Virus record (IMG/VR): IMGVR_UViG_2700989274_000005
Span: 1 to 20,931 of that record
Source of the DNA: a virus
Taxonomy: Duplodnaviria > Heunggongvirae > Uroviricota > Caudoviricetes
Direction: 5' to 3' (one strand)
Length of the DNA stretch: 20,931 bases
The translations under genes and the position numbers were made by a program. The notes beneath the pieces are model-generated. The model saw only the letters and a list, made by a program, of their open reading frames with translations. It made no database searches and was not told the origin of the DNA. Shown one piece after another: positions 2,686-20,931 of this stretch; position 1 is the first letter of the stretch, and the number at the start of each line of letters is the position of its first letter.

Positions 2686-2712
2686 CGCAAAGTCTCCGCA
2701 ATTACACGCAAG

Positions 2713-2928: not shown

Positions 2929-2931
2929 CAG

Positions 2932-3735: not shown

Positions 3736-3769
3736 TATAGTATATAGCGGGCAAGTTTTAGTTAATTTA

Positions 3770-3793
3770 TCGAGGTAATATAATTTACCTCGA
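3770..3793 (+). terminator. Perfect 9-bp hairpin downstream of the membrane-protein gene (possible terminator)
   Basis: tcgaggtaa-TATAAT-ttacctcga seen; followed by a moderately T-rich stretch. Confidence 0.35.
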
Positions 3794-3945
3794 CTCGTTT
3801 GTTCTGGTATTAATATTTCGCTTTACGACCGATTTTTATCTGATGATATCATGCGGTTTTCATATACTGACTTACTGTCTTTTCTCCGTTAGCGATTTTC
3901 TCCTGCTCAGCGATGATTTTATCTTTGGCTTCTAGTTAATTTCGC

Positions 3946-4167
3946 TCACTTCGAACCTCTCTGTTTACTGATAAGCTCCAGATCTTGCTGGCAACTGGCA
4001 CAAGTCCGACAACCCTGAACGGCCAGTCGTCTTCGTTCATCTATCGGATCGCCACACTCACAACAATGAGTGGCAGATATAGCCTGGTGGTTCAGGCGGC
4101 GCATTTTTATTGCTGTGTTGCGCTGTAATTCTTCAATTTCTGATGCTGAATCAATTATGTCTGCCAT
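3946..4167 (-). CDS. TraR/DksA-family C4 zinc-finger protein (lambda orf73-like)
   Basis: 73-aa ORF with a CxxC...CxxC spacing (CCECGDPIDERRRLAVQGCRTCASC) typical of TraR/DksA C-terminal zinc fingers; lambdoid b-region position. Confidence 0.6.
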   Translation of the reverse strand: MADIIDSASEIEELQRNTAIKMRRLNHQAISATHCCECGDPIDERRRLAVQGCRTCASCQQDLELISKQRGSK

Positions 4168-4222
4168 CTTTCATTAATCCCTGAATTGTTGGTTAATACG
4201 CTTGAGGGTGAATGCGAATAAT

Positions 4223-4243
4223 AAAAAAGGAGCCTGTAGCTCC
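4223..4243 (-). terminator. Putative intrinsic terminator (minus strand) between the 93-aa ORF and the TraR-like gene
   Basis: ggagc/gctcc stem with 5-nt loop, followed on the minus strand by a T6 run. Confidence 0.45.
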
Positions 4244-4265
4244 CTGATGATTTTGCTTTTCATGT

Positions 4266-4547
4266 TCACCGTTCCTTAAAGACGCCGTTCAACATGCCGA
4301 TCGCCAGGCTTAAATGAGTCGGTGTGAATCCCATCAGCGTTACCGTTTCGCGGTGCTTCTTTAGTACGCTACGGCAAATGTCATCGACGTTTTTATCCGG
4401 AAACTGCTGTCTGGCTTTTTTGATTTCAGAATTAGCCTGACGGGCAATGCTGCGAAGGGCGTTTTCTTGCTGAGGTGTCATTGAACAAGCCCCATGTCGG
4501 CAAGCATAAGCACACAGAATATGAAGCCCGCTGCCAGAAAAATGCAT
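4266..4547 (-). CDS. Hypothetical small b-region protein (lambda orf61 position; start may be internal)
   Basis: 93-aa ORF co-oriented with the neighbouring lambda-like small ORFs; identity not recognised with certainty. Confidence 0.4.
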   Translation of the reverse strand: MHFSGSGLHILCAYACRHGACSMTPQQENALRSIARQANSEIKKARQQFPDKNVDDICRSVLKKHRETVTLMGFTPTHLSLAIGMLNGVFKER

Positions 4548-4557
4548 TCAGTGGTTG

Positions 4558-4749
4558 TCATACCTGGTCTCTCTCATCTGCTTCTGCTTTCGCCACCATC
4601 ATTTCCAGCTTTTGTGAAAGGGATGCGGCTAACGTATGAAATTCTTCGTCTGTTTCTACTGGTATTGGCACAAACCTGACTCCAATTTGAGCGAGGCTAT
4701 GTGCCATCTCGATACTCGTTCTTAATTCAACGGGAGATGCTTTGTGCAT
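4558..4749 (-). CDS. Lambda orf63-like small protein
   Basis: 63-aa ORF immediately before the exo-proximal small ORF; size and position match lambda orf63. Confidence 0.5.
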   Translation of the reverse strand: MHKASPVELRTSIEMAHSLAQIGVRFVPIPVETDEEFHTLAASLSQKLEMMVAKAEADERDQV

Positions 4750-4910
4750 ACAGCTCCCCGTTTATTATTTATCTCCTCAGCCAGCCGCTGGGCTTTCAGC
4801 GGATTTCGGATAACAGAAAGGCCGGGAAATACCCAGCCTCGCTTTGTAACGGAGTAGACGAAAGTGATCGCGCCTACCCGGATATTATCGTGAGGATGCT
4901 TCATTGCCAT
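4722..4910 (-). CDS. Lambda orf60a-like small protein
   Basis: 62-aa ORF overlapping the exo start, as orf60a does in lambda. Confidence 0.45.
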
Positions 4911-5581
4911 TGCTCCCCATATACAAAACCAATTTCAGCCAGTGCCTCGTCCATTTTTTCGATGAACTCCGGCACCATCTCGTCAAAACTCGCCATGTAC
5001 TTTTCATTCCGCTCAACCACGACGTAATGCAGGCCTTCACGCTTCATGCGCGGGTCATAGTTGGCAAAGTACCAGGCATCTTTTCGCGTCACCCACATGC
5101 TGTACTGCACCTGGGCCATGTAAGCCGATTTTATTGCCTCGAAACCACCGAGCCGGAATTTCATGAAATCCCGGGAGGTAAACGGGCATTTCAGTTCAAG
5201 GCCGTTGCCGTCACTGCATAAACCATCGGGAGAGCAGGCGGTGCGCATATTTTCGTCGCGATAGATGATCGGGGATTCAGTAATATTCACGCCGGAAGTG
5301 AATTCAAACAGGGTTCTGGCGTCGTTCTCGTACTGTTTTCCCCAGGCCAGCGCCTTAGCATTAACTTCCGGAGCCACACCGGTGCAAACCTCAGCCAGCA
5401 GGGTGTGGAAGTAGGACATTTTCATGTCAGGCCACTTCTTTCCTGAGCGGGGCTTTGCTATCACGTTGTGAACTTCTGAAGCGGTGATGACGCCGAGCCG
5501 TAATTTGTGCCATGCATCATCCCCCTGTTCGACAACTCTCACGTCGATCCCGGTACGCTGCAGGATAATGTCCGGTGTCAT
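4901..5581 (-). CDS. exo: Lambda exonuclease (Red alpha)
   Basis: 226-aa [18 protein letters not shown]...; near-identical to lambda Exo as recalled; overlaps bet by 4 nt. Confidence 0.95.
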
Positions 5582-6363
5582 GCTGCCACCTTCTGCTCAG
5601 TGGCTTTCTGTTTAAGGAATCCAAGAGCTTTCACTGCTTCGGCCTGTGTCAGTTCTGACGATGCGCGAATGTCGCGGCGAAATATCTGGGAACAGAGCGG
5701 CAATAAGTCGTCATCCCATGTTTTATCCAGGGCGATCAGCAGAGTGTTAATCTCCTGCATGGTTTCATCGTTAACCGGAGTGATGTCGCGTTCCGGCTGA
5801 CGTTCTGCAGTGTATGCAGTATTTTCGACAATGCGCTCGGCTTCATCCTTGTCATAGATACCAGCAAATCCGAAGGCCAGACGGGCACACTGAATCATGG
5901 CTTTATGCCGTAACATCCGTTTGGGATGCGACTGCCACGGCCCCGTGATTTCTCTGCCTTCGCGGGTTTTGAATGGTTCGCGGCGGCATTCATCCATCCA
6001 CTCGGTAACGCAGATCGGATGATTGCGGTCTTTGCGGTAAATCCGGCATGTGCAGGATTCGTTGTCCTGTTCAAAGTCCATGCCGTCAAACTGCTGGTTT
6101 TCGTTGATGATGCGGGACCAGCCATCAACGCCCACCACCGGAACGATGCCGTTCTGCTTATCAGGGAAGGCGTAAATTTCTTTCGTCCACGGATTAAGAC
6201 CGTACTGGTTGGCGACGATCAGCAATGCGATGAACTGCGCATCGCTGGCATCACCTTTAAATGCCGTCTGGCGAAGAGTGGTGATCAGTTCCTGTGGGTC
6301 GACAGAATCCATGCCGACTCGTTCAGCCAGCTTCCCAGCCAGCGTTGCGAGTGCTGTACTCAT
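5578..6363 (-). CDS. bet: Lambda Bet (Red beta single-strand annealing protein)
   Basis: 261-aa [69 protein letters not shown]...; matches lambda Bet as recalled. Confidence 0.95.
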
Positions 6364-6368
6364 CCGTT

Positions 6369-6665
6369 TTATACCTCTGAATCAATATCAACCTGGTGGT
6401 GAGCAATGGTTTCAACCATGTACCGGATGTGTTCTGCCATGCGCTCCTGAAACTCAACATCGTCATCAAACGCACGGGTAATGGCTTTTTTGCTGACCCC
6501 GTGGCGTTGCAAATGATCGATGCATAGCGATTCAAACAGGTGCTGGGGCAGGCCTTTTTCCATGTCGTCTGCCAGTTCTGCCTCTTTCTCTTCACGGGCG
6601 ATCTGCTGGTAGTGACGCGCCCAGCTCTGAGCCTCAAGACGATCCTGAATGTAATAAGCGTTCAT
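6369..6665 (-). CDS. gam: Gam (RecBCD inhibitor), 98-aa GamS-length form
   Basis: 98-aa [24 protein letters not shown]... matching the C-terminal 98 aa of lambda Gam; AGGAG Shine-Dalgarno directly upstream; DNA upstream is not lambda-like. Confidence 0.9.
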
Positions 6666-6740
6666 GGCTGAACTCCTGAAAATGGCTGTGAAAATATCGC
6701 CCGCGAAATGCCAGGCTGATTAGGAAAACAGGAAAGGGGA

Positions 6741-7151
6741 TTAGTGATTCAGGCCGTTACCGCGTCCGTCGAGAAAAACTTCTACGAGCAAATCACGGGT
6801 ATAAGTGCGCTCGATGCCGCGATGCAGATAAAGCCGTCCGCGTAAATTAGCTGATGCAGTCCAGGTACCATCTTTGTGTTTGACCAGCATTCCTGGCATG
6901 ACCGCACCGCGATTAACGGTCTGCGTTCCGTAATGTTGATGAACCATAAAAACTCCTGCCCGTAAGCTGGGCTGCTGAACATATAGAGACTTCTGCGCGT
7001 ATTCAGGCGGTGGATGGCCGCCGGTTGTCATAACTAAGCCGCCTCGTTGAAGCGACTGAGGTATAAAGTGTTGTGTTGATTTCAGCTGGTCACACCGACG
7101 TTCACGCGTCCGTTTCACCCCTCGCACTCCCCGAAGCCTGCTGAAATTCAA
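6741..7151 (-). CDS. Hypothetical first gene of the early-left operon; Arg-rich N-terminus resembling N-family arginine-rich motifs; start codon uncertain
   Basis: Open frame begins at a TTG (7151). A GTG at 7118 has a GGGGAG Shine-Dalgarno and would start the protein at ...[15 protein letters not shown] (compare lambda N ...TRRRERRAEKQAQ). An internal ATG at 6947 has a strong AGGAG Shine-Dalgarno and gives a 68-aa product. Confidence 0.35.
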
Positions 7152-7224
7152 ACTGCGGATCTAAGCGGTCATCGCAACGGTGAAACAGGTGGTTACCGTA
7201 TCGTTGTGTCGTTGCGATGAATTT

Positions 7225-7300
7225 AATTTAAAACTATAGTTGTTTTATCGTCAACAACAAAAGTTGTTTTGTCGGTTGTTTTAAATATAACTGGTTGTAT
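7225..7300 (-). promoter_or_regulatory. Putative OL/pL: leftward promoter overlapped by repressor operator repeats
   Basis: Minus strand reads TTGACG-ataaaacaactatagtt-TTAAAT, nearly the same string as the putative pR. Cluster of GTTGTT-type half-sites (7239-7257, 7264-7280, 7293-7299). Confidence 0.5.
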
Positions 7301-7380
7301 TTAGGATGGATTTATTTTGTGACTTGCATCGCATAGCGATAACTGAAGTGAGGTGTGGTGGTTTTTTGGACGGTATGAGT

Positions 7381-7411
7381 TATGAGGGGGAGGAAAAGAA
7401 AACCCGGCGCG
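7381..7411 (-). terminator. Putative intrinsic terminator after the lipoprotein gene (minus strand)
   Basis: 7-bp GC-rich stem acccggc/gccgggt with 6-nt loop, followed on the minus strand by uuuucuuuucc; sits 18 nt beyond the lipoprotein stop. Confidence 0.55.
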
Positions 7412-7428
7412 GTTGCCGGGTATGATTA

Positions 7429-7809
7429 TCAGTCAGCCCAACCTGATTTCGAGTTTATTTGGGTTTCTGACATTGTGTATTTCTTAATCGTGTCATCGTT
7501 AAAAAGAATAGTAAGTTCTTTTTTCGTACCGTTCGTTCCATTATGGAATAATCCATAGAATGGAATAAAAGTGGTGCCATTAACTTTTACTTTTGCAAAG
7601 GCGTACTTCCAGATCTCGTTTCCACTGTCAGTATATGAAACAGCATCAGGAGAACCAAAGTAAGATTTAACCTCATTCTTGGTTGTTTTACCTTCCTGAA
7701 GTTTAGACTGGACACTAATTTCAGTTTCATTTTTGAGTTGCTGGTTGCCTGAAGAAGCACACCCAGCCAATACAGATGCCATCATGGCAGCGATTAGGAT
7801 TTTTCTCAT
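7429..7809 (-). CDS. Small lipoprotein cargo gene in the rexAB-equivalent position (between repressor gene and OL); possible SmpA/OmlA (BamE)-like fold
   Basis: 126-aa ORF MRKILIAAMMASVLAGCASS... with signal peptide and lipobox (LAGC); AT-rich; co-oriented with the repressor gene; has its own downstream terminator. Confidence 0.65.
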   Translation of the reverse strand: MRKILIAAMMASVLAGCASSGNQQLKNETEISVQSKLQEGKTTKNEVKSYFGSPDAVSYTDSGNEIWKYAFAKVKVNGTTFIPFYGLFHNGTNGTKKELTILFNDDTIKKYTMSETQINSKSGWAD

Positions 7810-8038
7810 TTTATGTTTCCATTCATTATAATCAGAAACATCTTAACATAATGATTCGAAATAAAAACCGCTACGAGATAGGGGGACATTTTGCTGACAG
7901 TAGCAACAAATCTCAGCTAACAACGAGAATATTTACTGAAATATGCAAACAGATTTGGCGTTCTTATAGAGAATTTAGTGCAATATCTAATCCGAGTGGT
8001 ATAAACCTTAACCTTCGCTCCCTTAAGTCGTAGATAAA

Positions 8039-8728
8039 TTAACCATGCTTCCTGTACGTCTGCGGCATGCTTCCAATGACCTTACCGAATATGAACACCC
8101 GGTTCATCTCGTCTTTCTCGATCGGGTCCCACGGCGAGTAGCTCTTGTTATCAGAGATAACCAGCAGCTTATCCTTCATCATTTGAAGACGTTTTACATG
8201 GGCAGTGTCGTCGTACAGAAACGCATAGATGCCATCACCGTCGAAAGATTTAACAGTGATATCAACGAACAGCAGGTCACCTGGTTCGATCGTCCCTGAC
8301 ATGCTGTCACCTCGCACGTTAATGATGCGGATATTTTCCGCCTTCCTGCCATCGAACATGTGACGAGCATCGTCAAACGAGTACTCAACCGAGCGTAGAA
8401 CTTCTACAAACTCACGGTTGATTACACCTGGCCCGGCACTGACTTCTATATCAAGAACGTCAATTTTGAAGTATTTGGAATGGCTGACAGTTGATTGTAT
8501 TGGTTGCACTGTACTGTCTGACATATTTCCAACGCCAGAAGATAACCATTCTGCGCGCACACCCAAAGCGTTCGCGATCTCCACGATTTTAGTTGTTTGG
8601 TTAGCTTTCCCTGTTTCGATTTTCTGAATAGCAGCCTGGCTAACCCCGACCAAATCCCCAAGCGCCTTTTGTGTAAGGCCTCGCGCTAATCTGGCTTCTT
8701 TAAGTCTTTCTGAGAGTGTTGTTTTCAT
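8039..8728 (-). CDS. CI-like prophage repressor (N-terminal XRE-type HTH, C-terminal S24 LexA-like autopeptidase domain)
   Basis: 229-aa ORF; HTH segment LTQKALGDLVGVSQAAIQKIETGK; C-terminal GDSM serine motif and KRL lysine motif typical of RecA-stimulated self-cleaving repressors; divergent from the cro-like gene. Confidence 0.85.
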   Translation of the reverse strand: MKTTLSERLKEARLARGLTQKALGDLVGVSQAAIQKIETGKANQTTKIVEIANALGVRAEWLSSGVGNMSDSTVQPIQSTVSHSKYFKIDVLDIEVSAGPGVINREFVEVLRSVEYSFDDARHMFDGRKAENIRIINVRGDSMSGTIEPGDLLFVDITVKSFDGDGIYAFLYDDTAHVKRLQMMKDKLLVISDNKSYSPWDPIEKDEMNRVFIFGKVIGSMPQTYRKHG

Positions 8729-8769
8729 AGATCAAATGTACAACCAAGGTTTTATTTCATCAAACGAAA

Positions 8770-8805
8770 ATGGTTGTTGACTAAAAACAACCATAGTTTT
8801 AATCT
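8770..8805 (+). promoter_or_regulatory. Putative OR/pR: operator palindrome overlapping a rightward promoter
   Basis: Perfect inverted repeat ATGGTTGTT-gactaaa-AACAACCAT (8770-8794); -35 TTGACT (8777-8782), 17-bp spacer, -10-like TAATCT (8800-8805); GGAGG Shine-Dalgarno before the cro-like ATG at 8833. Confidence 0.55.
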
Positions 8806-8832
8806 TTATTCGGATTAACCACGGAGGTTGTT

Positions 8833-9063
8833 ATGAACCCAGCAATCAAAACAGCGATCAATATCGTTGGTTCACAAAAGAAACTAGGCGATGCCTGCGA
8901 AGTTTCACAGCAGGCCGTCTATAAGTGGCTTCACAACAAAGCAAAGGTATCCCCTGAACATGTCGGCAGCATTGTTACGGCTACTGGTGGAGTTGTGAAG
9001 GCATACCAGATTCGCCCGGATCTTCCGAAGTTGTTTCCACACACCGAAAAGAACGCAGCTTAA
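8833..9063 (+). CDS. Cro-like HTH regulator (Cro/CI family)
   Basis: 76-aa ORF with HTH-like segment (QKKLGDACEVSQQAVYKW); first gene transcribed rightward from the operator region, divergent from the repressor gene. Confidence 0.7.
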   Translation: MNPAIKTAINIVGSQKKLGDACEVSQQAVYKWLHNKAKVSPEHVGSIVTATGGVVKAYQIRPDLPKLFPHTEKNAA

Positions 9064-9075
9064 ATTTCCATTTCA

Positions 9076-9084
9076 CGCTCTTTA
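9076..9084 (+). promoter_or_regulatory. boxA-like element (CGCTCTTTA) in nutR position
   Basis: Exact match to the boxA consensus, 13 nt after the cro-like stop, where lambda nutR lies; no canonical boxB hairpin seen next to it. Confidence 0.35.
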
Positions 9085-9132
9085 ACAATAAGCAATCAAC
9101 TTAACAGTCAATTCAAACTAAAGGAGTCAATT

Positions 9133-9672
9133 ATGCAACCACTTACATACCAACAGACTAGCGGATTTATTCCGACTGCGGTGATAAATCGTTCTCAAAC
9201 AAAACAAGCTCCAGGCCACGAAAAAATCCGTGATGCCGTCCGCGCCTGGTCGGCTGTAGATAATCAGGATGTCGTTGCCGCACTCATTGTGAATGAGTAT
9301 CGGGAGCAGGGCGACGGCACCATCGATTTCCCTGATGATGTCAGCCGTGCACGCCAGAAGCTGTTCCGCTTCCTCGATAACAAATTCGATTCTGAAAAAT
9401 ACCGAAATAACGTGCGTGAACTGACCCCGGCAATTCTGGCGGTACTACCGCTGGAATATCGCGGTTACCTGGTTGAGCAGGATAGCTTCATGACTCGGTT
9501 GGCTGAAATGGAAAAGGAACTCAGTGAGGCAAAACAGGCTGTCATTCTCAACGCACCACGCCACCAGAAACTGAAGGAAATGAGTGAAGGTATTGTGTCG
9601 ATGTTTCGTGTGGACCCGGATCTGGCTGGTCCATTAATGGCGATGGTGACCACCATGCTGGGGGCAATATGA
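9133..9672 (+). CDS. YdaT/CII-like prophage regulatory protein
   Basis: 179-aa ORF in the cII position; segment LTPAILAVLPLEYR resembles the YdaT-family segment I recall from Rac YdaT (LIPAILAILPRELR). Confidence 0.45.
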   Translation: MQPLTYQQTSGFIPTAVINRSQTKQAPGHEKIRDAVRAWSAVDNQDVVAALIVNEYREQGDGTIDFPDDVSRARQKLFRFLDNKFDSEKYRNNVRELTPAILAVLPLEYRGYLVEQDSFMTRLAEMEKELSEAKQAVILNAPRHQKLKEMSEGIVSMFRVDPDLAGPLMAMVTTMLGAI

Positions 9673-9758
9673 CAGGTTCAGAAATGGCGAAAGTCGGTCT
9701 GCGGGAACAGAACCGACTTTCAGGTGCAAATCGTAACACACTCATTGCGGGAGGAATT

Positions 9759-10688
9759 ATGGCAAACACTGCTGAGATATTCAATTTTCCAGTGCCGGAT
9801 GCGGCACAAAAGGAGCCGCGCGTGGCAGATCTCGATGATGGTTATACGCGCATTGCAAATGAGTTGCTGGAAGCTGTGATGCTGGCCGGATTAACACAGC
9901 ACCAGCTTCTGGTCTTCCTGGCTGTCATGCGCAAAACATATGGCTTTAATAAAAAACTGGATTGGGTGAGCAACGAGCAACTTTCCGAGTTGACCGGGAT
10001 ATTGCCGCACAAGTGTTCTGCTGCAAAAAGTGTTCTGGTAAAGCGTGGGATTTTTATTCAGAGCGGGCGGAATATCGGCATTAATAATGTGGTCAGTGAA
10101 TGGTCAACATTACCCGAATCAGGTAAGAAAAATAAAGTTTACCTGAAAGAGGTAAATTTACCTGAATCAGGTAAGAAAAGTTTACCCAAATCAGGTAAAG
10201 GCACTTACCCGAATCAGGTAAACACAAAATACAAACTAACAAAAGACAATATAAAACCTTTTTCGTCCGAGAATTCTGGCGAATCCTCTGACCAACCAGA
10301 AAACGATCTTCCTGTGGAGAAACCAGATGCTGCAATTCAGAGCGGCAGCAGGTGGGGGACAGCAGAAGACCTGACCGCCGCAGAGTGGATGTTTGACATG
10401 GTGAAGACCATCGCGCCATCAGCCAGAAAACCGAATTTTGCAGGGTGGGCTAACGATATCCGCCTGATGCGTGAACGTGACGGCCGTAACCACCGCGACA
10501 TGTGCGTGCTGTTCCGCTGGGCATGCCAGGACAACTTCTGGTCCGGTAACGTGCTAAGTCCGGCCAAACTCCGCGACAAGTGGACCCAACTCGAAATCAA
10601 CCGTAACAAGCAACAGGCTGGCGTGATAGCCGGAAAATCAAAACTCGACCTGACAAACACTGACTGGATTTACGGGGTGGATTTATGA
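9759..10688 (+). CDS. Replication initiator O-like protein (likely start at 9759; the longer frame opens at 9669)
   Basis: N-terminus MANTAEIFNF...VADLDDGYTRIANELLEA parallels lambda O (MTNTAKILNF...VADLDDGYARLSNMLLEA); GGGAGG Shine-Dalgarno before 9759; iterons inside the gene; stop overlaps the P start. Confidence 0.8.
   Translation: MANTAEIFNFPVPDAAQKEPRVADLDDGYTRIANELLEAVMLAGLTQHQLLVFLAVMRKTYGFNKKLDWVSNEQLSELTGILPHKCSAAKSVLVKRGIFIQSGRNIGINNVVSEWSTLPESGKKNKVYLKEVNLPESGKKSLPKSGKGTYPNQVNTKYKLTKDNIKPFSSENSGESSDQPENDLPVEKPDAAIQSGSRWGTAEDLTAAEWMFDMVKTIAPSARKPNFAGWANDIRLMRERDGRNHRDMCVLFRWACQDNFWSGNVLSPAKLRDKWTQLEINRNKQQAGVIAGKSKLDLTNTDWIYGVDL
10110..10222. repeat. Replication origin iterons (five 18-bp repeats, consensus TTACCyGAATCAGGTAAr) within the O gene, followed by an AT-rich stretch to about 10260
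   Basis: Repeats at 10110-10127, 10139-10156, 10158-10175, 10182-10199, 10205-10222, each internally palindromic (ttacc...ggtaa); encode repeated LPESGKK-like peptide in O; AT-rich tract follows. Confidence 0.8.
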
Positions 10689-11386
10689 AAAACATCGCCG
10701 CACAGATGGTTAACTTTGACCGTGAGCAGATGCGCCGGATCGCCAACAACATGCCGGAACAGTACGACGAAAAGCCGCAGGTACAACAGGTAGCGCAGAT
10801 CATCAATGGTGTGTTCAGCCAGTTACTGGCAACTTTCCCGGCGAGCCTGGCTAACCGGGACCAGAACGAACTGAACGAAATCCGCCGCCAGTGGGTTCTG
10901 GCTTTCCGGGAAAACGGGATCACCACGATGGAACAGGTTAACGCAGGAATGCGCGTAGCCCGTCGGCAGAATCGACCATTCCTGCCATCACCCGGGCAGT
11001 TTGTTGCCTGGTGCCGGGAAGAAGCATCCGTTACCGCCGGGCTGCCAAACGCCAGCGAGCTGGTTGATATGGTTTACGAGTATTGCCGGAAACGTGGCCT
11101 GTATCCAGATGCAGAGTCTTATCCGTGGAAATCAAACGCGCACTACTGGCTGGTTACCAACCTGTATCAGAACATGCGGGCCAATGCGCTGACTGATGCG
11201 GAATTACGGCGCAAGGCTGCCGATGAACTGGCCTGTATGACAGCGCGAATTAACCGTGGTGAGGCGATACCTGAACCAGTAAAACAACTTCCTGTCATGG
11301 GCGGGAGACCGCTTAATCGTGTTCAGGCTCTGGCGAAGATCGCAGAAATCAAAGCGAAGTTTGGGCTGAAAGGAGCAAGTGTATGA
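10685..11386 (+). CDS. P: Lambda replication protein P (DnaB helicase loader)
   Basis: 233-aa ORF MKNIAAQMVNFDREQMRRIANNMPEQYDEKPQVQQVAQIINGVF...; near-identical to lambda P as recalled. Confidence 0.95.
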   Translation: MKNIAAQMVNFDREQMRRIANNMPEQYDEKPQVQQVAQIINGVFSQLLATFPASLANRDQNELNEIRRQWVLAFRENGITTMEQVNAGMRVARRQNRPFLPSPGQFVAWCREEASVTAGLPNASELVDMVYEYCRKRGLYPDAESYPWKSNAHYWLVTNLYQNMRANALTDAELRRKAADELACMTARINRGEAIPEPVKQLPVMGGRPLNRVQALAKIAEIKAKFGLKGASV

Positions 11387-11670
11387 CGGGCAAAGAGGCA
11401 ATTATTCATTACCTGGGGACTCATAAGAACTTCTGTGCGCAGGACGTTGCCGCGGTAACAGGCGCAACCGTAACCAGCATAAATCAGGCTGCGGCTAAAA
11501 TGGCGCGGTCAGGAATCCTGGTCGTTGATGGTAAGGTCTGGCGAACGGTGTATTACCGGTTCGCTACCAGAGAAGAACGGGAAGGAAAGGTGAGCACGAA
11601 TCTGATTTTTAAGGAGTGTCGTCAAAGTGCCGCGATGAAGCGGGTGTTGGCTTTATATGGAAGAGAGTAG
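11383..11670 (+). CDS. ren: Lambda Ren
   Basis: 95-aa ORF MTGKEAIIHYLGTHKNFCAQDVAAVTGATVTSINQAAAKMARSG...; matches lambda Ren as recalled; overlaps the P stop. Confidence 0.85.
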   Translation: MTGKEAIIHYLGTHKNFCAQDVAAVTGATVTSINQAAAKMARSGILVVDGKVWRTVYYRFATREEREGKVSTNLIFKECRQSAAMKRVLALYGRE

Positions 11671-11734
11671 GTATGAGCAATTATTGTTACTAATTTTAGT
11701 TTTACGACATTCGTGATAACTAAATAATTGATGT

Positions 11735-11989
11735 GTGGAACTGAATTATAAAGGGGATGATGTTTTGGGAAATAAAGAAAATATCGATTGTAAGCACACA
11801 AGAAGCTCATGCTATAAAAACAAGCAGATGAAAGATGTTATTTATATTACATTGCCTAAACTCACTGAAGAAGAAGTAGAAATTTTTAAGGGACCAATGC
11901 ATAAAGCATTGCTTGCAGGGATAAATGTTACAAAAAAGGCAGTTTCTGATGCCCTGCTAAACAAAGGGATAAAAGTTGAATTTAAATAG
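11735..11989 (+). CDS. Hypothetical small protein in the AT-rich cargo slot (GTG start as listed; possible internal ATG start giving about 53 aa)
   Basis: 84-aa frame in AT-rich DNA, convergent with the 472-aa gene; weak ribosome-binding context, so coding status is uncertain. Confidence 0.3.
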   Translation: MELNYKGDDVLGNKENIDCKHTRSSCYKNKQMKDVIYITLPKLTEEEVEIFKGPMHKALLAGINVTKKAVSDALLNKGIKVEFK

Positions 11990-12005
11990 AGTAATTCAGT
12001 GGCAA

Positions 12006-12033
12006 CAATAGCACTCATTTGTGAGTGCTATTG
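12006..12033. terminator. Perfect 12-bp stem / 4-nt loop hairpin between the convergent cargo genes (possible bidirectional terminator)
   Basis: caatagcactca-tttg-tgagtgctattg seen; lies between the stop at 11989 (plus) and the stop at 12041 (minus). Confidence 0.5.
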
Positions 12034-12040
12034 AAATTTA

Positions 12041-13459
12041 TTAGAAAATAATGTTTGCTATATCCGAGATAGCATTTAAAGAACCTCTGTGGTCACTTCC
12101 TGTTTTAGGTAAAATATAGGAATATCGAGGGTCTTCATTATATGTTAACTTCCAGTGTTTTCCATCGCTTGACGCACTGAAACCTAAGTCCTTTAAATTT
12201 CTTTGTGTTGCGCTATCCATGCTTCTGTAACCTGTTAAAGTCCTTTTAAGTAATTGGCGGCGACTCTCGGTTTCTTTATTGTATTCATTATTGGCAATTA
12301 GGGATGATAAGATATGGTAGCTTCTACCAAATTCATTTTTATTTTTTATGGCAGTTTTTAGTGCGTCAATAATTATATTTTTGATTTCTCCATCAAAAAA
12401 ATCAGTCTCTTCACCAGCATTAAGCACAATGCTTCCTTGGGCTGAAGCTTGTGATTGAAGAGTGCGTACTCTGTGCTCTAAAGAGGAGATCTTATGCTTA
12501 AGATCTTCTATTTGGTCATCTTTCGCAACATTATCGGCTTCGTAAAGCGCCATCAGTTCGCGTGTGTATTCTCCTCTTTCTTTGAGTGAGTTAATAGAGT
12601 CTTTCGTTTTTCTGGTTTGTATCTCACTCCATCCACTATCTGAGACAGGAGCCATTGTAGTCGTAGCTCTTACAACATCATCAAATAACTCATCTTCAAA
12701 TTCTTTTGCGGTTTTCTCACCACGGCGATAAAAACTGATATTTTGACCCCGTGGCCAATAGATACCAACAGCACCAGCATAGGCATTTTTAGCATTTGTC
12801 TCATTTTTTAGCTTAATAGAAAATAGTCTATTGCTAGGCTCAATTAATACATGTGCTAATCCGCATACCTTTCTTGCAAGGCGTTCTGGGATGATATTGT
12901 GAGCATGTTCATTAAAAAAATACTTGGAGCTAACGTATATTATTGGTAGTCTGTTGTCAGTTTCACCATTTATAACTTTAGCTGCTATATTTAAATGTTC
13001 ATCAGTATCATCTAAGGAATGAGGTTCGACTGACACCTTGAAAATATCATCAAGACCACCAGAAAATTTATCAATCAATCTCATAACAACTAATGGTTTC
13101 TTAGGTTGCGGGGCTAGATAAGCTGCATCTTGGCTTACAACGCTAGATTCCACCTGAATCCACATGGTATCAGTTTTGAGATTTTTATTAATTGAAATAT
13201 CTGTTACCCATTTGTGTGGCTCAGATATTTTCGAATACCTAAAACAGCCTAAACTAGTATCTTTGTTTTTATAAGTTATTATATCAATTCTTTCATTTTT
13301 AGACTCTATGAAGTACTCCTCGCTTTTATAATCACATACTAATTGTGCTGGAATAAAAGTTGTATGTGGTGAGTCGTTTACCCAAGAAAAACATTCATTA
13401 AAGATCTCAGCTAGAGATGTGGAGTTTGAAACATAAAAACCAGTTGAGAAATATTTCAT
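12041..13459 (-). CDS. Orphan 472-aa protein, no recognised family; low-GC cargo gene antisense to the early-right operon
   Basis: 1.4-kb uninterrupted ORF in AT-rich DNA; AAGGA Shine-Dalgarno 7 nt before the ATG; no Walker A or HExxH seen; heptad-like charged segment around aa 300-340 (DDQIEDLKHKISSLEHRVRTLQSQ). Confidence 0.75.
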   Translation of the reverse strand: MKYFSTGFYVSNSTSLAEIFNECFSWVNDSPHTTFIPAQLVCDYKSEEYFIESKNERIDIITYKNKDTSLGCFRYSKISEPHKWVTDISINKNLKTDTMWIQVESSVVSQDAAYLAPQPKKPLVVMRLIDKFSGGLDDIFKVSVEPHSLDDTDEHLNIAAKVINGETDNRLPIIYVSSKYFFNEHAHNIIPERLARKVCGLAHVLIEPSNRLFSIKLKNETNAKNAYAGAVGIYWPRGQNISFYRRGEKTAKEFEDELFDDVVRATTTMAPVSDSGWSEIQTRKTKDSINSLKERGEYTRELMALYEADNVAKDDQIEDLKHKISSLEHRVRTLQSQASAQGSIVLNAGEETDFFDGEIKNIIIDALKTAIKNKNEFGRSYHILSSLIANNEYNKETESRRQLLKRTLTGYRSMDSATQRNLKDLGFSASSDGKHWKLTYNEDPRYSYILPKTGSDHRGSLNAISDIANIIF

Positions 13460-13476
13460 GAAATTTCCTTATTAAA

Positions 13477-13494
13477 AATGAGATTAATCTCATT
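13477..13494. promoter_or_regulatory. Perfect 18-bp palindrome just upstream of the 472-aa gene (candidate operator or regulatory hairpin)
   Basis: aatgagatt|aatctcatt seen 18 nt upstream of the start codon at 13459. Confidence 0.35.
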
Positions 13495-13734
13495 GGCTAT
13501 GATAATTGTTACCCTCCTTTGGATCTAGTGTTCATTTGACATAAGAACCTATTGATTCATCATAATCAACTCGCCATAATCATGTCATCGGAGCCTGAAC
13601 AACTCCGGTGACTTCTGCGCTTTGAGGGGACTCAAAGTGCAAACGACAATCAGAACACCTTTCAACCAGTCACAGATGCAGAAATGCACCTGCGATATCT
13701 TGCATCCAACGTTTGACCTCTGCGGAGGTGAAGC

Positions 13735-14190
13735 GTGAACCTCCCACAAGATGGTATCAAATTGCATCGCGGTAACTTCACCGCTATCGGTCGGCAGATC
13801 CAGCCTTATCTGGAGGACGGCAAATGCTTTCGCATGGTGCTTAAACCGTGGCGCGAGAGACGCAGTCTTTCCCAGAATGCACTCAGCCACATGTGGTACA
13901 GCGAAATCAGTGAATACCTCATCAGCAAGGGTAAAACGTTCGCCACTCCAGCTTGGGTAAAAGATGCTCTCAAACACACATATCTCGGTTATGAAACCAA
14001 AGACCTGGTTGATGTCGTAACCGGTGATATCACCACTATCCAGTCGTTACGCCATACCTCCGATCTTGATACCGGAGAGATGTATGTCTTCCTGTGTAAG
14101 GTTGAAGCCTGGGCGGTGAATATTGGCTGCCACCTGACTATTCCGCAGAGCTGCGAGTTCCAGCTGCTCCGCGACAAGCAGGAGGCGTAA
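13735..14190 (+). CDS. ybcN: YbcN-like nin-region protein (DLP12 ybcN family)
   Basis: 151-aa ORF with GTG start and GGAGG Shine-Dalgarno; size and position before ninE-ybcO-rusA match DLP12 ybcN. Confidence 0.6.
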
Positions 14191-14360
14191 TGGCTACACC
14201 GCTTATTCGTGTCATGAACGGACACATCTACAGAGTACCAGATCGTCGTAAGCGTAAACCGGAGCTGAAGCCTTCCGAAATACCAACACTGCTCGGATAT
14301 ACCGCCAGCCTGGTTGATAAAAAATGGTTGCGACTGGCAGCAAGGAGGAATCATGGCTGA
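14190..14360 (+). CDS. ninE: NinE (56 aa), not in the supplied ORF track
   Basis: Translated by hand: [56 protein letters not shown]; ATG overlaps the ybcN stop (taATG); ends 14360, overlapping the ybcO start. Confidence 0.65.
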   Translation: MATPLIRVMNGHIYRVPDRRKRKPELKPSEIPTLLGYTASLVDKKWLRLAARRNHG

Positions 14361-14643
14361 TTTGAGAAAAGCAGCGCGTAGTCGGGAATGCCAGGTAAGA
14401 ATCCCTGGCGTATGTAATGGCAACCCTGAAACGTCTGTACTGGCACATATCCGGCTGACTGGATTGTGCGGCACCGGTACCAAACCGCCAGACCTGATTG
14501 CCACCATTGCATGTTCTGCCTGCCACGACGAAATCGACCGCCGCACACATTTTGTCGATGCTGCATATGCAAAAGAATGCGCGCTGGAAGGTATGGCGAG
14601 AACACAGGTTATCTGGCTGAAAGAGGGGGTTATTAAGGCGTGA
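14353..14643 (+). CDS. ybcO: YbcO-like protein (DUF1364, cysteine-cluster putative nuclease); start at 14353 rather than 14314
   Basis: 96 aa from MADLRK... with AAGGAGGA Shine-Dalgarno; Cys cluster CQVRIPGVC...CSAC; lies directly before rusA as in DLP12. Confidence 0.65.
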
Positions 14644-15002
14644 ATACCTACAGCATCACATTACCCTGGCCTCCGAGCAATAATCGCTATTACCGCCATA
14701 ATCGCGGGCGCACGCACGTCAGCGCAGAGGGGCAGGCATACCGCGATAACGTCGCCCGAATCATTAAAAACGCAATGCTGGATATCGGCCTGGCTATGCC
14801 TGTGAAAATCCGCATTGAGTGCCACATGCCGGATCGCCGTCGCCGTGACCTGGATAATCTGCAAAAAGCCGCTTTTGACGCACTCACTAAAGCAGGTTTC
14901 TGGCTGGATGATGCTCAGGTCGTTGATTACCGCGTTGTGAAGATGCCTGTTACCAAAGGTGGGAGGCTGGAACTGACCATCACCGAAATGGGGAATGAAT
15001 GA
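14640..15002 (+). CDS. rusA: RusA Holliday-junction resolvase
   Basis: 120-aa [50 protein letters not shown]...; matches E. coli RusA as recalled. Confidence 0.9.
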
Positions 15003-15139
15003 TGTTTGAGTTTTATATGGCAGAACGTCTTCGCCACCGCTGGGGGCGTCTGCGCTTATATCGTTTCCCCGGTTCTGTTTTGACCGATTACCGAATACTG
15101 AAGAATTACGCCAAAACCCTGACAGGAGCAGGAGTATGA
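14999..15139 (+). CDS. ylcG: YlcG-like small protein (46 aa), not in the supplied ORF track
   Basis: Translated by hand: [46 protein letters not shown]; ATG overlaps the rusA stop; DLP12 gene order rusA-ylcG-Q. Confidence 0.55.
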
Positions 15140-15224
15140 AGTCAGAGATAACAATCAACTAATACTGTTTTGTTGATTTTTGCTTGTAATTGGCGTTCTG
15201 GTCTGATTTTTGTGGAGTAAGTTG

Positions 15225-15271
15225 ATGCGTGATATTCAGATGGTTCTTGAGCGTTGGGGAGCGTGGGCGGC
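15225..15271 (+). CDS. Q-like late antiterminator, 5' fragment only (first 15 codons), truncated by the assembly gap
   Basis: ATG at 15225 encodes MRDIQMVLERWGAWA..., the N-terminus of DLP12-type Q (QuuD) as recalled; runs into the N run at 15272. Confidence 0.6.
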
Positions 15272-15281
15272 NNNNNNNNNN
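15272..15281. other. Assembly gap (10 N) joining prophage sequence to an unrelated chromosomal locus
   Basis: Run of 10 N; upstream is the prophage Q start, downstream is the interior of an autotransporter gene. Confidence 0.95.
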
Positions 15282-15282
15282 C

Positions 15283-18200
15283 ATCGTCAATAACGAAGGC
15301 GAGAGCACTATCACCAATGGCGGCACCGGCACTCAGATCAACGGTAACGACGCCACCGCGAATAACAGTGGAAAAACCACTGTTGATGGAAAAGATTCCA
15401 CGGGTACCAAAATCGCGGGCAATATCGGCATTGTAAATCTGGATGGTAGCCTGACTGTTACAGGCGGTGCGCATGGTGTTGAGAACATTGGTGACAACGG
15501 CACGGTTAACAACAAAGGAGATATTGTTGTTTCCGATACTGGATCGATTGGCGTGCTCATCAACGGTGAGGGGGCAACAGTATCCAATACGGGTGATGTT
15601 AACGTTAGCAATGAAGCGACAGGGTTCAGCATCACAACCAACAGTGGGAAGGTTTCGCTGGCAGGCAGTATGCAGGTTGGCGATTTCTCGACCGGGGTAG
15701 ATCTTAATGGCAACAATAACAGCGTGACGCTGGCGGCAAAAGATCTAAAAGTGGTCGGGCAGAAAGCGACGGGCATAAACGTTTCTGGCGATGCGAATAC
15801 AGTGAATATCACTGGTAACGTTCTGGTTGATAAGGATAAAACCGCAGACAATGCGGCGGAATATTTCTTCGATCCATCCGTGGGTATCAACGTTTACGGC
15901 AGTGATAATAACGTGACGCTGGATGGAAAGTTAACTGTTGTATCAGACAGTGAGGTTACTTCTCGTCAGAGTAATTTATTTGATGGCAGCGCAGAGAAAA
16001 CGTCAGGTCTGGTTGTGATTGGCGATGGCAATACCGTTAATATGAATGGTGGACTTGAACTGATTGGAGAGAAAAACGCGCTTGCAGATGGGTCGCAGGT
16101 TGCTTCCTTGCGCACAGGATATAGTTATACCAGCGTTATTGTCGTTAGTGGTGAGTCGTCGGTATATCTGAATGGAGATACGACAATCAGCGGAGAATTC
16201 CCTCTGGGGTTTGCCGGGGTTATTCGGGTACAGGATAAAGCTTTGCTGGAAATTGGCAGTGGCGCTACGCTAACAATGCAGGATATTGACAGTTTTGAAC
16301 ATCATGGGACAAGAACCCCAGAACTTACTTATGCTGATTCCGGTGCGAAAATTGTTAATAAAGGTACTGTTGAAATTCAGAATTTAGGTTTTGCTTTTGT
16401 TACTGGTGAAAATACAACAGGTATAAATAGTGGCACGATCTCGTTATTACAAAATGGTAAAGATCCGGCACCGTCTCCCATTGTTTTACTGGCTACTAAC
16501 GGAGGGAGCGCCACTAATGCAGGTACGATCACAGGTAAAGTGACGGAACAACATAGCGTATTTAACAAGTATTCAACGGGCACATCGAATTCATTTATTT
16601 TTAATAACGATGTCAGTAGCATAACAGGGTTAGTCGCTCAATCGAATAGCACAATTATCAATACTGACAGCGGCATCATTGATTTGTATGGTCGTGGTAG
16701 TGTCGGCATGCTTGCTATAGCAGATTCAACAGCAGAAAATCAGGGTAAAATTACACTGGATTCTATGTGGGTACATGCAAATGACACTACCGCAATGCGA
16801 GATATAGCTAGCAACAGCGCCATTGACTTCGGTACAGGTGTGGGAGTTGGTACTGATAGTTATAGTGGTGCAGGGAAAAATGCAACAGCAATTAACCAAT
16901 TGGGCGGTGTTATAACTATTTATAACGCCGGCGCAGGTATGGCGGCCTATGGCGCCAGCAATACAGTTATTAACCAGGGGACGATTAACCTCGAAAAAAA
17001 TGGTAATTATGACGATAGTCTGGCAGCAAATACTCTGGTAGGGATGGCTGTTTATGAGCATGGTACTGCTATCAACGACCAGACGGGTGTTATCAATATC
17101 AATGTTGGTACTGGTCAGGCGTTTTATAACGATGGCACAGGAACAATTGTTAACTATGGTACAATCTGCACTTTCGGCGTGTGCCAATCGGGGAATGAGT
17201 ACAATAATACAGATGATTTCACCTCACTGATCTATACCGGTGGCGATACGATTACACGAAGCGGAGAAACTGTAACGCTAAATAAATCTGCTGCTGTGAC
17301 TGATAAGCTGGCTGGGAATGTTGTTAATAGCGGAACGCTTTCCGGTGATCAAATTACGGTATCAAGCGGTCTTCTGGAAAATACCAGCGGTGGCATCATC
17401 AATAACTTAGTAAAACTTGACAAGGGTGCCGTCATTAAAAATGCCGGGGTGATGACGAATAACGTCGATGTTAGCGGTGGAATCCTCAATAATGCCGGAG
17501 AAATGACTGCGCAAATTACCATGAATGCTGGTGCTGATAGTTCGTTAGTGAACAACACCGGAACCATCAATAAAATCGTGCAGAACGCGGGGGTATTCAA
17601 TAATAGTGGCAGTGTAACAGGGCGGATGATGTCGGCTGGCGGGGTCTTTAATAATCAAACTGACGGGGCGATTATGAGAGGTGCTGCGCTGACAGGTACT
17701 GCAGTGGCAAATAACGAAGGAACCTGGAACCTCGGAAGTAGTAGTGAGGGTAACAACACCGGGATGCTGGAAGTTAATAATAATTCAGCTTTCAATAACC
17801 GCGGCGAGTTTATTCTTGATAACGACAAGAATGCTGTGCACATCAACCAGTCCGGTACGCTTTATAATACCGGTCACATGAACATCAGTAATTCTTCCCA
17901 CAACGGAGCCGTTAATATGTGGGGCGGAAATGGTCGTTTTATCAATGACGGAACGATTGATGTTTCTGCGAAGTCACTGGTAGTCAGCGCTAATAATGCC
18001 GGCGATCAGAATGCCTTCTTCTGGAACCAGGATAACGGGGTCATCAACTTCGATCACGACAGCGCCAGTGCCGTGAAAGTCACCCACAGCAACTTTATTG
18101 CCCAGAATGACGGCATCATGAACATCAGCGGCACCGGTGCTGTGGCTATGGAAGGTGATAAGAACGCGCAGCTGGTTAACAATGGCACCATCAACCTCGG

Positions 18201-19863
18201 TACCGCAGGCACTACTGACACGGGTATGATCGGTATGCAACTCGATGCCAACGCCACGGCGGATGCGGTAATCGAAAACAACGGCACCATCAATATCTTC
18301 GCCAATGACTCGTTTGCATTTAGCGTACTGGGTACAGTAGGTCATGTGGTTAACAACGGCACGGTGGTGATTGCCGATGGGGTTACGGGTTCTGGACTGA
18401 TCAAGCAGGGCGACAGCATCAATGTTGAAGGTATGAACGGTAACAACGGTAATAGCAGCGAAGTGCATTATGGCGACTATACGTTGCCGGATGTGCCGAA
18501 GCCCAATACGGTTAGTGTAACGTCGGGAAGTGATGAGGCTGGTGGCAGCATGAACAACCTCAACGGCTATGTCGTCGGTACCAACGTTAACGGCAGCGCC
18601 GGGAAGCTGAAGGTTAACAATGCCAGCATGAACGGCGTGGAGATTAACACGGGCTTTACCGCTGGTACGGCAGACACCACTGTGAGTTTTGATAACGTAG
18701 TGGAAGGTAGCAACCTGACCGACGCTGACGCCATCACCTCAACGTCCGTGGTATGGACTGCCAAAGGCAGCACCGATGCCAGCGGTAACGTTGACGTCAC
18801 CATGAGCAAAAATGCCTACACCGATGTGGCAACAGATGCCTCGGTGAATGACATCGCGAAAGCACTGGATGCGGGTTACACCAACAACGAACTGTTTACC
18901 AGCCTGAACGTCGGCACGACTGCTGAACTGAACAGTGCTCTGAAACAGGTCAGCGGTAGCCAGGCGACCACGGTATTCCGCGAAGCGCGCGTGTTAAGCA
19001 ACCGCTTTAGTATGCTGGCAGATGCCGCGCCGAAAGTGGGTAACGGTCTGGCGTTCAACGTTGTCGCGAAAGGCGATCCGCGTGCCGAGTTAGGTAATAA
19101 TACCGAATACGACATGCTGGCATTGCGTAAAACTATCGACCTGAGCGAAAGCCAGACGATGAGTCTGGAGTACGGTATCGCTCGTCTCGATGGTGATGGT
19201 GCGCAGAAAGCGGGTGATAATGGCGTTACAGGCGGTTATAGCCAGTTTTTTGGCCTGAAACATCAGATGTCGTTCGATAACGGCATGAACTGGAATAACG
19301 CCTTGCGTTACGACGTTCACAACCTTGACAGCAGCCGCTCGATTGCATTTGGCAACACGAACAAAACGGCTGATACCGACGTGAAACAGCAGTACCTGGA
19401 GTTCCGCAGCGAAGGGGCGAAGACTTTCGAACCGAGCGAAGGACTGAAGGTTACGCCATATGCGGGTGTAAAACTGCGTCACACACTGGAAGGTGGCTAT
19501 CAGGAGCGCAATGCCGGAGACTTTAACCTGAATATGAACAGTGGCAGCGAAACGGCGGTGGACAGCATCGTCGGGCTGAAACTGGACTACGCAGGTAAAG
19601 ACGGCTGGAGCGCTAGCGCTACGCTGGAAGGCGGGCCGAACCTGAGCTACGCGAAGAGCCAGCGTACGGCAAGCCTGGCAGGCGCAGGCAGTCAGCACTT
19701 TAACGTCGATGACGGTCAGAAGGGCGGCGGCATCAATAGCCTGACAAGCGTCGGCGTGAAGTACAGCAGCAAAGAAAGTTCGCTGAATCTGGATGCGTAC
19801 AACTGGAAAGAGGATGGCATCAGCGATAAAGGCGTGATGCTGAACTTTAAGAAAACGTTCTAA
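15283..19863 (+). CDS. ydbA: YdbA-like autotransporter (beta-helical passenger plus C-terminal beta-barrel translocator), 5'-truncated at the gap
   Basis: About 1526 in-frame codons after the gap; Gly/Asn/Thr/Val-rich repetitive passenger; C-terminal about 280 aa with alternating barrel-like pattern ending in a terminal Phe (...LNFKKTF); followed by ydbC as in K-12. Confidence 0.8.
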   Translation: MVNNEGESTITNGGTGTQINGNDATANNSGKTTVDGKDSTGTKIAGNIGIVNLDGSLTVTGGAHGVENIGDNGTVNNKGDIVVSDTGSIGVLINGEGATVSNTGDVNVSNEATGFSITTNSGKVSLAGSMQVGDFSTGVDLNGNNNSVTLAAKDLKVVGQKATGINVSGDANTVNITGNVLVDKDKTADNAAEYFFDPSVGINVYGSDNNVTLDGKLTVVSDSEVTSRQSNLFDGSAEKTSGLVVIGDGNTVNMNGGLELIGEKNALADGSQVASLRTGYSYTSVIVVSGESSVYLNGDTTISGEFPLGFAGVIRVQDKALLEIGSGATLTMQDIDSFEHHGTRTPELTYADSGAKIVNKGTVEIQNLGFAFVTGENTTGINSGTISLLQNGKDPAPSPIVLLATNGGSATNAGTITGKVTEQHSVFNKYSTGTSNSFIFNNDVSSITGLVAQSNSTIINTDSGIIDLYGRGSVGMLAIADSTAENQGKITLDSMWVHANDTTAMRDIASNSAIDFGTGVGVGTDSYSGAGKNATAINQLGGVITIYNAGAGMAAYGASNTVINQGTINLEKNGNYDDSLAANTLVGMAVYEHGTAINDQTGVININVGTGQAFYNDGTGTIVNYGTICTFGVCQSGNEYNNTDDFTSLIYTGGDTITRSGETVTLNKSAAVTDKLAGNVVNSGTLSGDQITVSSGLLENTSGGIINNLVKLDKGAVIKNAGVMTNNVDVSGGILNNAGEMTAQITMNAGADSSLVNNTGTINKIVQNAGVFNNSGSVTGRMMSAGGVFNNQTDGAIMRGAALTGTAVANNEGTWNLGSSSEGNNTGMLEVNNNSAFNNRGEFILDNDKNAVHINQSGTLYNTGHMNISNSSHNGAVNMWGGNGRFINDGTIDVSAKSLVVSANNAGDQNAFFWNQDNGVINFDHDSASAVKVTHSNFIAQNDGIMNISGTGAVAMEGDKNAQLVNNGTINLGTAGTTDTGMIGMQLDANATADAVIENNGTINIFANDSFAFSVLGTVGHVVNNGTVVIADGVTGSGLIKQGDSINVEGMNGNNGNSSEVHYGDYTLPDVPKPNTVSVTSGSDEAGGSMNNLNGYVVGTNVNGSAGKLKVNNASMNGVEINTGFTAGTADTTVSFDNVVEGSNLTDADAITSTSVVWTAKGSTDASGNVDVTMSKNAYTDVATDASVNDIAKALDAGYTNNELFTSLNVGTTAELNSALKQVSGSQATTVFREARVLSNRFSMLADAAPKVGNGLAFNVVAKGDPRAELGNNTEYDMLALRKTIDLSESQTMSLEYGIARLDGDGAQKAGDNGVTGGYSQFFGLKHQMSFDNGMNWNNALRYDVHNLDSSRSIAFGNTNKTADTDVKQQYLEFRSEGAKTFEPSEGLKVTPYAGVKLRHTLEGGYQERNAGDFNLNMNSGSETAVDSIVGLKLDYAGKDGWSASATLEGGPNLSYAKSQRTASLAGAGSQHFNVDDGQKGGGINSLTSVGVKYSSKESSLNLDAYNWKEDGISDKGVMLNFKKTF

Positions 19864-20070: not shown

Positions 20071-20931
20071 ATGAGCAGCAATACATTTACTCTCGGTACA
20101 AAATCCGTTAACCGTCTTGGTTATGGCGCGATGCAACTGGCAGGTCCTGGAGTTTTTGGCCCCCCACGAGATCGCCACGTCGCTATAACCGTGCTGCGTG
20201 AGGCGCTGGCATTGGGCGTCAATCATATTGATACCAGCGACTTTTATGGTCCGCACGTCACCAATCAGATTATCCGCGAAGCGCTTTATCCTTACTCTGA
20301 CGACCTGACAATTGTCACTAAAATTGGTGCGCGGCGTGGAGAGGACGCATCCTGGTTGCCCGCATTTTCTCCTGCAGAGCTGCAAAAAGCGGTGCACGAT
20401 AATCTACGTAATCTCGGGCTGGACGTGCTGGATGTGGTTAACCTGCGCGTTATGATGGGGGATGGTCATGGCCCAGCGGAAGGATCGATTGAGGCCAGCC
20501 TGACCGTGCTGGCAGAGATGCAACAACAAGGCCTGGTAAAACATATTGGCCTGAGCAACGTCACACCGACGCAGGTTGCAGAGGCGCGCAAGATTGCCGA
20601 AATTGTCTGTGTGCAAAACGAATACAACATCGCGCACCGTGCTGATGATGCAATGATTGATGCTTTGGCCCACGATGGCATTGCCTACGTGCCGTTCTTC
20701 CCGCTCGGGGGCTTTACACCGCTGCAATCGTCCACACTTTCCGATGTTGCTGCGAGCCTGGGTGCAACACCAATGCAGGTGGCGCTGGCGTGGCTGTTAC
20801 AGCGTTCACCGAATATTTTGCTGATCCCAGGGACGTCTTCGATTGCGCATTTACGGGAGAATATGGCTGCTGAAAAATTGCAACTTTCTGAGGAAGTGTT
20901 GTCTACGTTGGATGGTATTTCGCGAGAATAA
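20071..20931 (+). CDS. ydbC: Aldo-keto reductase family oxidoreductase
   Basis: 286-aa ORF with aldo-keto reductase signatures (LGYGAMQL, IDTSDFYG); matches E. coli YdbC as recalled; stop codon is the last three bases of the window. Confidence 0.8.
   Translation: MSSNTFTLGTKSVNRLGYGAMQLAGPGVFGPPRDRHVAITVLREALALGVNHIDTSDFYGPHVTNQIIREALYPYSDDLTIVTKIGARRGEDASWLPAFSPAELQKAVHDNLRNLGLDVLDVVNLRVMMGDGHGPAEGSIEASLTVLAEMQQQGLVKHIGLSNVTPTQVAEARKIAEIVCVQNEYNIAHRADDAMIDALAHDGIAYVPFFPLGGFTPLQSSTLSDVAASLGATPMQVALAWLLQRSPNILLIPGTSSIAHLRENMAAEKLQLSEEVLSTLDGISRE

Follow-up and report, generated by a model that had tools for sequence, protein, structure and literature searches.

We analysed a window of 20,931 nt (the whole stretch of DNA under study), in which two blocks of sequence meet at a single run of exactly 10 N, the only N run present (Table 1). 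The left block carries the chromosomal gene ybhC and the left part of a lambdoid prophage and ends at base 15271. The right block starts at base 15282 and carries the 3′ part of a ydbA/BigA-type autotransporter gene, followed by pdxI.

Table 1. Features of the window, and contig ends and gene calls at the corresponding places in sibling assemblies
Feature	Position	Strand	Basis or remark
ybhC, chromosomal gene flanking lambda attB, 427 aa	1..1284	-	JS01 and K-12 annotation; Pfam Pectinesterase
lambda att core GCTTTTTTATACTAA (attL)	1331..1345	+	exact match
lambda-type integrase, 356 aa, left prophage end	1419..2489	-	Arm-DNA-bind_1 and Phage_integrase (Pfam) on identical sibling gene
rusA, complete	14640..15002	+	coordinates transferred from EFF60 annotation
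ylcG, final complete prophage gene before the break	14999..15139	+	coordinates transferred from EFF60 annotation
quuD-type Q antiterminator, 5′ fragment	15225..15271	+	15 codons and 2 nt; identity to known Q genes
chimeric mechanical ORF, no gene	15229..19863	+	GTG start, 1544 aa, crosses N run
10-N spacer between two contigs	15272..15281	.	N-run count; same spacer in sibling assemblies
ydbA/BigA-type autotransporter gene, 3′ part	15282..19863	+	frame from 15283, 1526 aa and stop
ydbA passenger 294-nt tandem array, last 133 nt	15282..15414	+	TRF array of locus L002
BigA_beta domain	about 18565..18816	+	Pfam 87.7 bits, cutoff 24.3
C-terminal autotransporter beta-barrel PF03797	about 19177..19773	+	E = 1.2e-19, 71.5 bits, cutoff 26
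pdxI (ydbC), usual ydbA downstream neighbour as in K-12	20071..20931	+	ORF and K-12 comparison
JRSK01 (RU1 BHI4), Q side	contig end 15207		10 N, then tRNA-like sequence beside asnB and nag genes
JRSD01 (RU1 LB9), Q side	contig end 15265		10 N, then yhdP-rng-maf-mreDCB
JRRZ01 (RU1 LB5), Q side	contig end 15269		10 N, then gltP-nrf
JRSE01 (RU1 LB10), Q side	contig end 15271		10 N, then nanR-nanATEK...gltD
JRSG01 (RU1 LB12), Q side	contig end 15271		10 N, then DUF1435, fhuF
JRSS, JRSG, JRSB, JRRJ, ydbA side	contig start at equivalent of 15282		directly after N run
JRRN, ydbA side	contig start 62 nt further upstream		in repeat array
JRRS, ydbA side	contig start 66 nt further upstream		in repeat array
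JRRM, ydbA side	contig start 450 nt further upstream		in repeat array
Sibling chimeric gene calls	L027 2183..6793; L028 2146..6793; L034 2150..6793; L035 1433..6793; L036 2114..6793		read across 10-N joins

The left block was compared with known lambdoid prophages. The lambda att core GCTTTTTTATACTAA had one exact match in the window, with 0 expected by chance; this single copy is the attL, and the search found no attR in the window. The integrase gene is followed by an early region with xis, exo, bet, gam, a cI-like repressor, O, P and ren, and the nin region then runs through ybcN, ninE, ybcO, rusA and ylcG to the start of quuD. The gene order is that of JS01 and EFF60, as in a lambdoid prophage at attB (between ybhC and ybhB) with a DLP12-type nin-Q region, and EFF60 differs from the window by 1 base over 1572 nt (window 13700..15271). 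The ATG at 15225 opens MRDIQMVLERWGAWA, and 47 nt are present up to the gap, which agrees with the earlier note, where a Q-like frame was described as cut after 15 codons by 10 N. These 47 nt are identical to the start of K-12 DLP12 quuD and to the Q genes of all other prophages compared. Full-length Q has about 125-127 aa with Phage_antitermQ (PF06530); the window has 15 codons only, and the 16-aa Q stub of two sibling assemblies (RU1 LB10 and LB12) gave only a weak PF06530 match. The Q in the window is thus the fragment of a family member and, as represented there, not a functional gene.

In the closest prophage at ybhC, that of JS01, quuD is followed by a porin gene, essD, rrrD, and the terminase, head and tail genes, so the expectation that a complete lambdoid prophage has lysis, head and tail genes past Q holds for relatives located at ybhC. 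Compared with such a complete prophage, the window has the left 14 kb only and lacks Q past codon 15, the lysis and structural genes and attR. The prophage genes past codon 15 of Q are missing because the contig ends there, and no evidence of a deletion as the cause of the missing part was found.

The right block holds a 4.6-kb 3′ portion of the ydbA/BigA gene. Its first base, 15282, aligns with nt 2659 of the 7240-nt ydbA/BigA-type gene of RM9513 and with nt 1482 of ydbA fragment 1 in K-12. It lies upstream of both BigA_beta and the C-terminal barrel, which places the break inside the passenger, where the earlier note had also put it. The PF03797 match was obtained by scanning the last 350 aa alone (18811..19860) and was not reported when the whole 1526-aa fragment (15283..19863) was scanned; the repetitive passenger may suppress it through the HMMER filters. 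The NCBIfam model auto_BigA matched with E = 1.4e-282 over model positions 1091-1874 of 1875, and the score of 940 bits falls short of the 3400 that the model sets for full-length proteins, which is expected when a fragment of a homologue is scanned. The fragment therefore has the C-terminal barrel of a type Va autotransporter together with BigA-specific domains and BigA-model similarity, and shares with the E. coli ydbA / Salmonella BigA adhesin the auto_BigA match up to the model end, BigA_beta and the Autotransporter barrel. It contains no N-terminal signal peptide and no complete passenger, since the window lacks the 5′ part of the gene; RU1 LB9 does have that part, and BigA_N is found on its gene call.

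Relative to the RM9513 gene, the window lacks the 5′ 2658 nt with most of a 294-nt repeat array. Tandem Repeats Finder (TRF) described this array in RM9513 (locus L002, 7011..9132) with a period of 294, 7.2 copies and 93% matches, and base 15282 corresponds to L002 position 9000. The arrays were compared over L002 7011..9132, L004 2393..4910, L029 1319..6793 and window 15282..15414. The copy number of the 294-nt (98-aa) unit varies: RM9513 has 7.2 units, K-12 four fewer, and the RU1 LB9 assembly six fewer than RM9513, a shortfall that probably comes from the assembler collapsing the array. K-12 ydbA carries IS2 and IS30 insertions, whereas the ydbA portion of the window has neither. A break at the K-12 IS2/IS30 site was considered and rejected, as these sites are located ~1.04 kb farther along the gene, where the window is uninterrupted.

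The reading frame that crosses the gap was then inspected. It reads VIFRWFLSVGERGR-XXXX-IVNNEG: 14 out-of-frame codons from the Q start lead through the N run into the reading frame of ydbA. The ORF is a chimera, and the earlier suggestion that it is an artefact spanning the gap is borne out by this translation. Public gene calls in sibling assemblies, including proteins of 1536-1786 aa, likewise read across 10-N joins into ydbA (Table 1), one of them beginning beside a phage Nu1 terminase gene. These sibling calls are spurious chimeric proteins in public collections. Proteins such as the 1544-aa ORF and the similar sibling calls of 1526-1786 aa are spurious and can enter protein databases.

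To find other assemblies of the same prophage, we performed exact-protein look-ups with the 472-aa nin-region protein and a 126-aa lipoprotein of the window, which led to five NCBI draft assemblies. The same prophage is present in JRSK01, JRSD01, JRSE01, JRRZ01 and JRSG01. Window 1..15271 and JRSG01000010 (RU1 LB12) showed 100.000% identity over 15,271 nt, free of mismatches and gaps, and the 13.2 kb adjoining the break (from 2041) are identical in RU1 BHI4, LB9, LB10 and LB5. The names RU1 LB5, LB7, LB9, LB10, LB12, BHI4 and BHI12 appear as assembly names in a published table (PMC9638481). E. coli RU1 is a human stool isolate, one clone of which founded twelve mutation-accumulation lines as well as LB and BHI populations, and the lines were sequenced as 100-bp paired reads; that paper gives no account of how the GenBank assemblies were built (PMC4263409). 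Descending from one clone, the sibling assemblies therefore represent a single genome, apart from a few mutations. The window most likely comes from another draft short-read assembly of this experimental-evolution series.

The Q-side ends of the siblings were then examined. In all five, the prophage contig stops within 64 nt of one point and is followed by exactly 10 N and by a different locus each time (Table 1; gene names of the partner loci were read from Pfam content and gene order).

For the ydbA side, siblings were found by exact-protein look-up with the window's pdxI product. Eight assemblies of this accession series contain the window's right 5650 nt without any difference. Seven contig starts on this side are each preceded by 10 N and a different partner sequence, and the ydbA-side runs of 10 N number eight in seven assemblies. 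In three more siblings, ydbA repeat sequence lies directly upstream of the equivalent of 15282, and JRSD01 (RU1 LB9) covers paaX-paaY and all of ydbA in one stretch without N. Where assemblies extend upstream of the 15282 equivalent, they show the ydbA repeat ...gacggcgaccaggc|catcgtcaataacg..., never Q. One sibling assembly thus shows directly that, upstream of the fragment, ydbA goes on through its repeat array and is preceded by paaY-paaX. In a single record, JRSG01000010 (RU1 LB12), breaks occur at the same two bases as in the window. They lie near 1.37 Mb and 0.51 Mb, about 0.85 Mb apart, and each has another partner.

These observations bear on the possibility that the stretch is otherwise contiguous and that the 10 N replace a short genuine segment, taken out for example by a screen for contamination or adaptors. 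Screening software does at times write N runs. This explanation is contradicted by the siblings that have ydbA, not Q, directly upstream of the 15282 equivalent; moreover, the same 10-N spacer stands at other contig joins of the sibling records, and the flanks come from loci 0.66 Mb apart in K-12. We consider its probability practically nil.

We next asked how the two flanks are arranged in complete genomes. We searched 5426 complete E. coli genomes with the whole window; none had a place covering at least 80% of it, and the Q-ydbA adjacency was found in 0 of 5426. An exact-pattern scan of genome_contigs for the junction with its N run gave no match. The best place covers 65% of the window, which is the left half alone. 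In K-12, the end of ybhC is at 807,281 and the ydbA break point at 1,466,873, with 0.66 Mb between them, close to the roughly 0.65 Mb given earlier. The two halves of the window keep the orientation they have in K-12 and also the order, with ybhC before ydbA.

The flanks are thus non-adjacent both in independent assemblies of the same clone and in complete genomes, and the spacer between them has the fixed length of 10 N seen in the sibling joins. The same breaking bases, with a different partner in each same-clone sibling, argue that the junction cannot be real. We conclude that it is almost certainly an artefact, the join of two unrelated draft-assembly contigs, one prophage and one chromosomal. 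The support for this interpretation is close to direct: a scaffolding or contig-ordering join had been proposed, and the same contig ends prove to have five (Q) and seven (ydbA) other partners through 10 N. Chance is not an issue for the junction, because the N run is a placeholder written by software. In the proposed course of events, separate short-read contigs would have been strung together with 10-N spacers. The left contig would run from ybhC and attL through int to rusA and ylcG and stop 47 nt into Q, and the software would have set this end beside the start of the ydbA contig, in an order uninformative about the chromosome. In the real genome, Q would presumably continue into the late genes and to attR next to ybhB, and the ORF at 15229..19863 would be the outcome of translating through the N run. 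Known 10-N contig joins in draft short-read assemblies have a fixed 10 N, partners that vary within a clone and gene callers that translate across the gap, and no feature of the window junction differs from these.

Two further explanations were weighed. The first is that a real, line-specific rearrangement (a translocation, or a duplication with insertion) joined Q to the interior of ydbA, the 10 N hiding a short stretch. The halves share the K-12 relative orientation, and with hundreds to thousands of generations of propagation behind the RU1 lines, line-specific events are possible in principle. Such an event would nevertheless have to fall exactly on two pre-existing assembly breakpoints that the siblings join elsewhere, and its product occurs in none of the 5426 complete genomes. 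If it had been a simple deletion, the line would have lost 0.66 Mb of chromosome; the ybhC-ydbA interval of 0.66 Mb contains essential genes. A real rearrangement is therefore extremely unlikely, and we give an equally slender chance to a genuine structural variant that used the assembler's repeat boundaries and is hidden behind a routine-looking 10-N join.

The second is reference-guided ordering, in which the contigs would stand in true order and orientation with the 0.66 Mb between them left unplaced (the remaining prophage, the chromosome from ybhB to paaY, and the 5′ part of ydbA). The K-12 orientation of both halves, with ybhC ahead of ydbA, is in its favor. The Q-side partners in the siblings (asnB/nag, yhdP/mre, nan/glt, gltP/nrf and fhuF), however, follow no consistent map order, the ydbA contig is preceded there by unrelated loci, and it would be odd for 0.66 Mb of ordinary single-copy chromosome to remain unplaced. 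This ordering is very unlikely, though slightly less so than a rearrangement, and if it were true the junction would be an artefact all the same.

With the junction taken as a contig join, we looked at why the contigs break where they do. The left end lies in a Q region that is multi-copy across other genomes: the ybcN-to-Q segment was found in 4023 of the 5426 complete genomes, at up to 4 places per genome. From 15208 into Q, the sequence is invariant in the ten prophages compared, and 15207 is a T/G polymorphism. This base, 18 nt upstream of the Q start codon, is T in K-12 and the window and G in EFF60 and in another ybhC prophage (locus L017); JS01 lacks one T of the run at 15207. The RU1 BHI4 contig ends at 15207, the last variable site before the invariant stretch into Q. 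The other end positions, 15265, 15269 and 15271, fit 15207+k-1 with k values of 59, 63 and 65, each of them odd and smaller than the read length of 100 nt. We infer that the assembler was unable to extend uniquely at the left break, the sequence from there being common to other lambdoid elements. A presumed second Q-bearing element of RU1, differing at 15207, would end a de Bruijn contig with the last k-mer holding 15207. This k-mer reading fits the three end positions and leaves the BHI4 end at 15207 itself unexplained.

The right contig start lies inside the 294-nt array, and a cause of the same kind, acting in the last unit of the ydbA array, presumably produced the right break. With the RM9513 array as a proxy, the sequence at the contig start shared only a 27-nt prefix with other repeat units; a k of about 65 was therefore not reproduced on this side.

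The junction is not a biological feature and has no biological meaning; it serves only as a caution about data quality. Synteny should not be deduced from the contig order of these draft records, and this evidence does not justify scoring the prophage as truncated at Q or ydbA as 5′-deleted. Joins of this kind create spurious synteny as well as spurious proteins in public records.

Several other features of the window were recorded. The Rfam and tRNA scans of the window found no RNA genes. A 200-aa ORF (3133..3735, +) with several hydrophobic stretches adjoins xis, on the strand opposite to the early-left genes; it had no match in Pfam, NCBIfam or PADLOC, and the RU1 siblings and the ybhC prophage of locus L017 carry it as well. 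The 472-aa ORF used in the look-up (12041..13459, -) lies between the ren-like gene and ybcN, on the strand opposite to its neighbours. It matched the PADLOC candidate defence family HEC-07 (E = 1e-9), and Pfam and NCBIfam gave no match. Related prophages carry NACHT, SNIPE/T5orf172, HEPN or Bro-N genes at this position, and the slot between the ren-like gene and ybcN is therefore probably a defence-cargo hotspot.

The 126-aa predicted lipoprotein (7429..7809, -) adjoins the cI-like repressor and showed a weak BamE-like match, below the cutoff (E = 1.6e-4). Its exact sequence occurs in 6772 blocks of the assembly collection, indicating that it is very widespread among lambdoid prophages. Finally, the window boundaries coincide exactly with two stop codons, that of ybhC at the start and that of pdxI at the end, and the window was therefore cut at annotated gene boundaries rather than at arbitrary positions.
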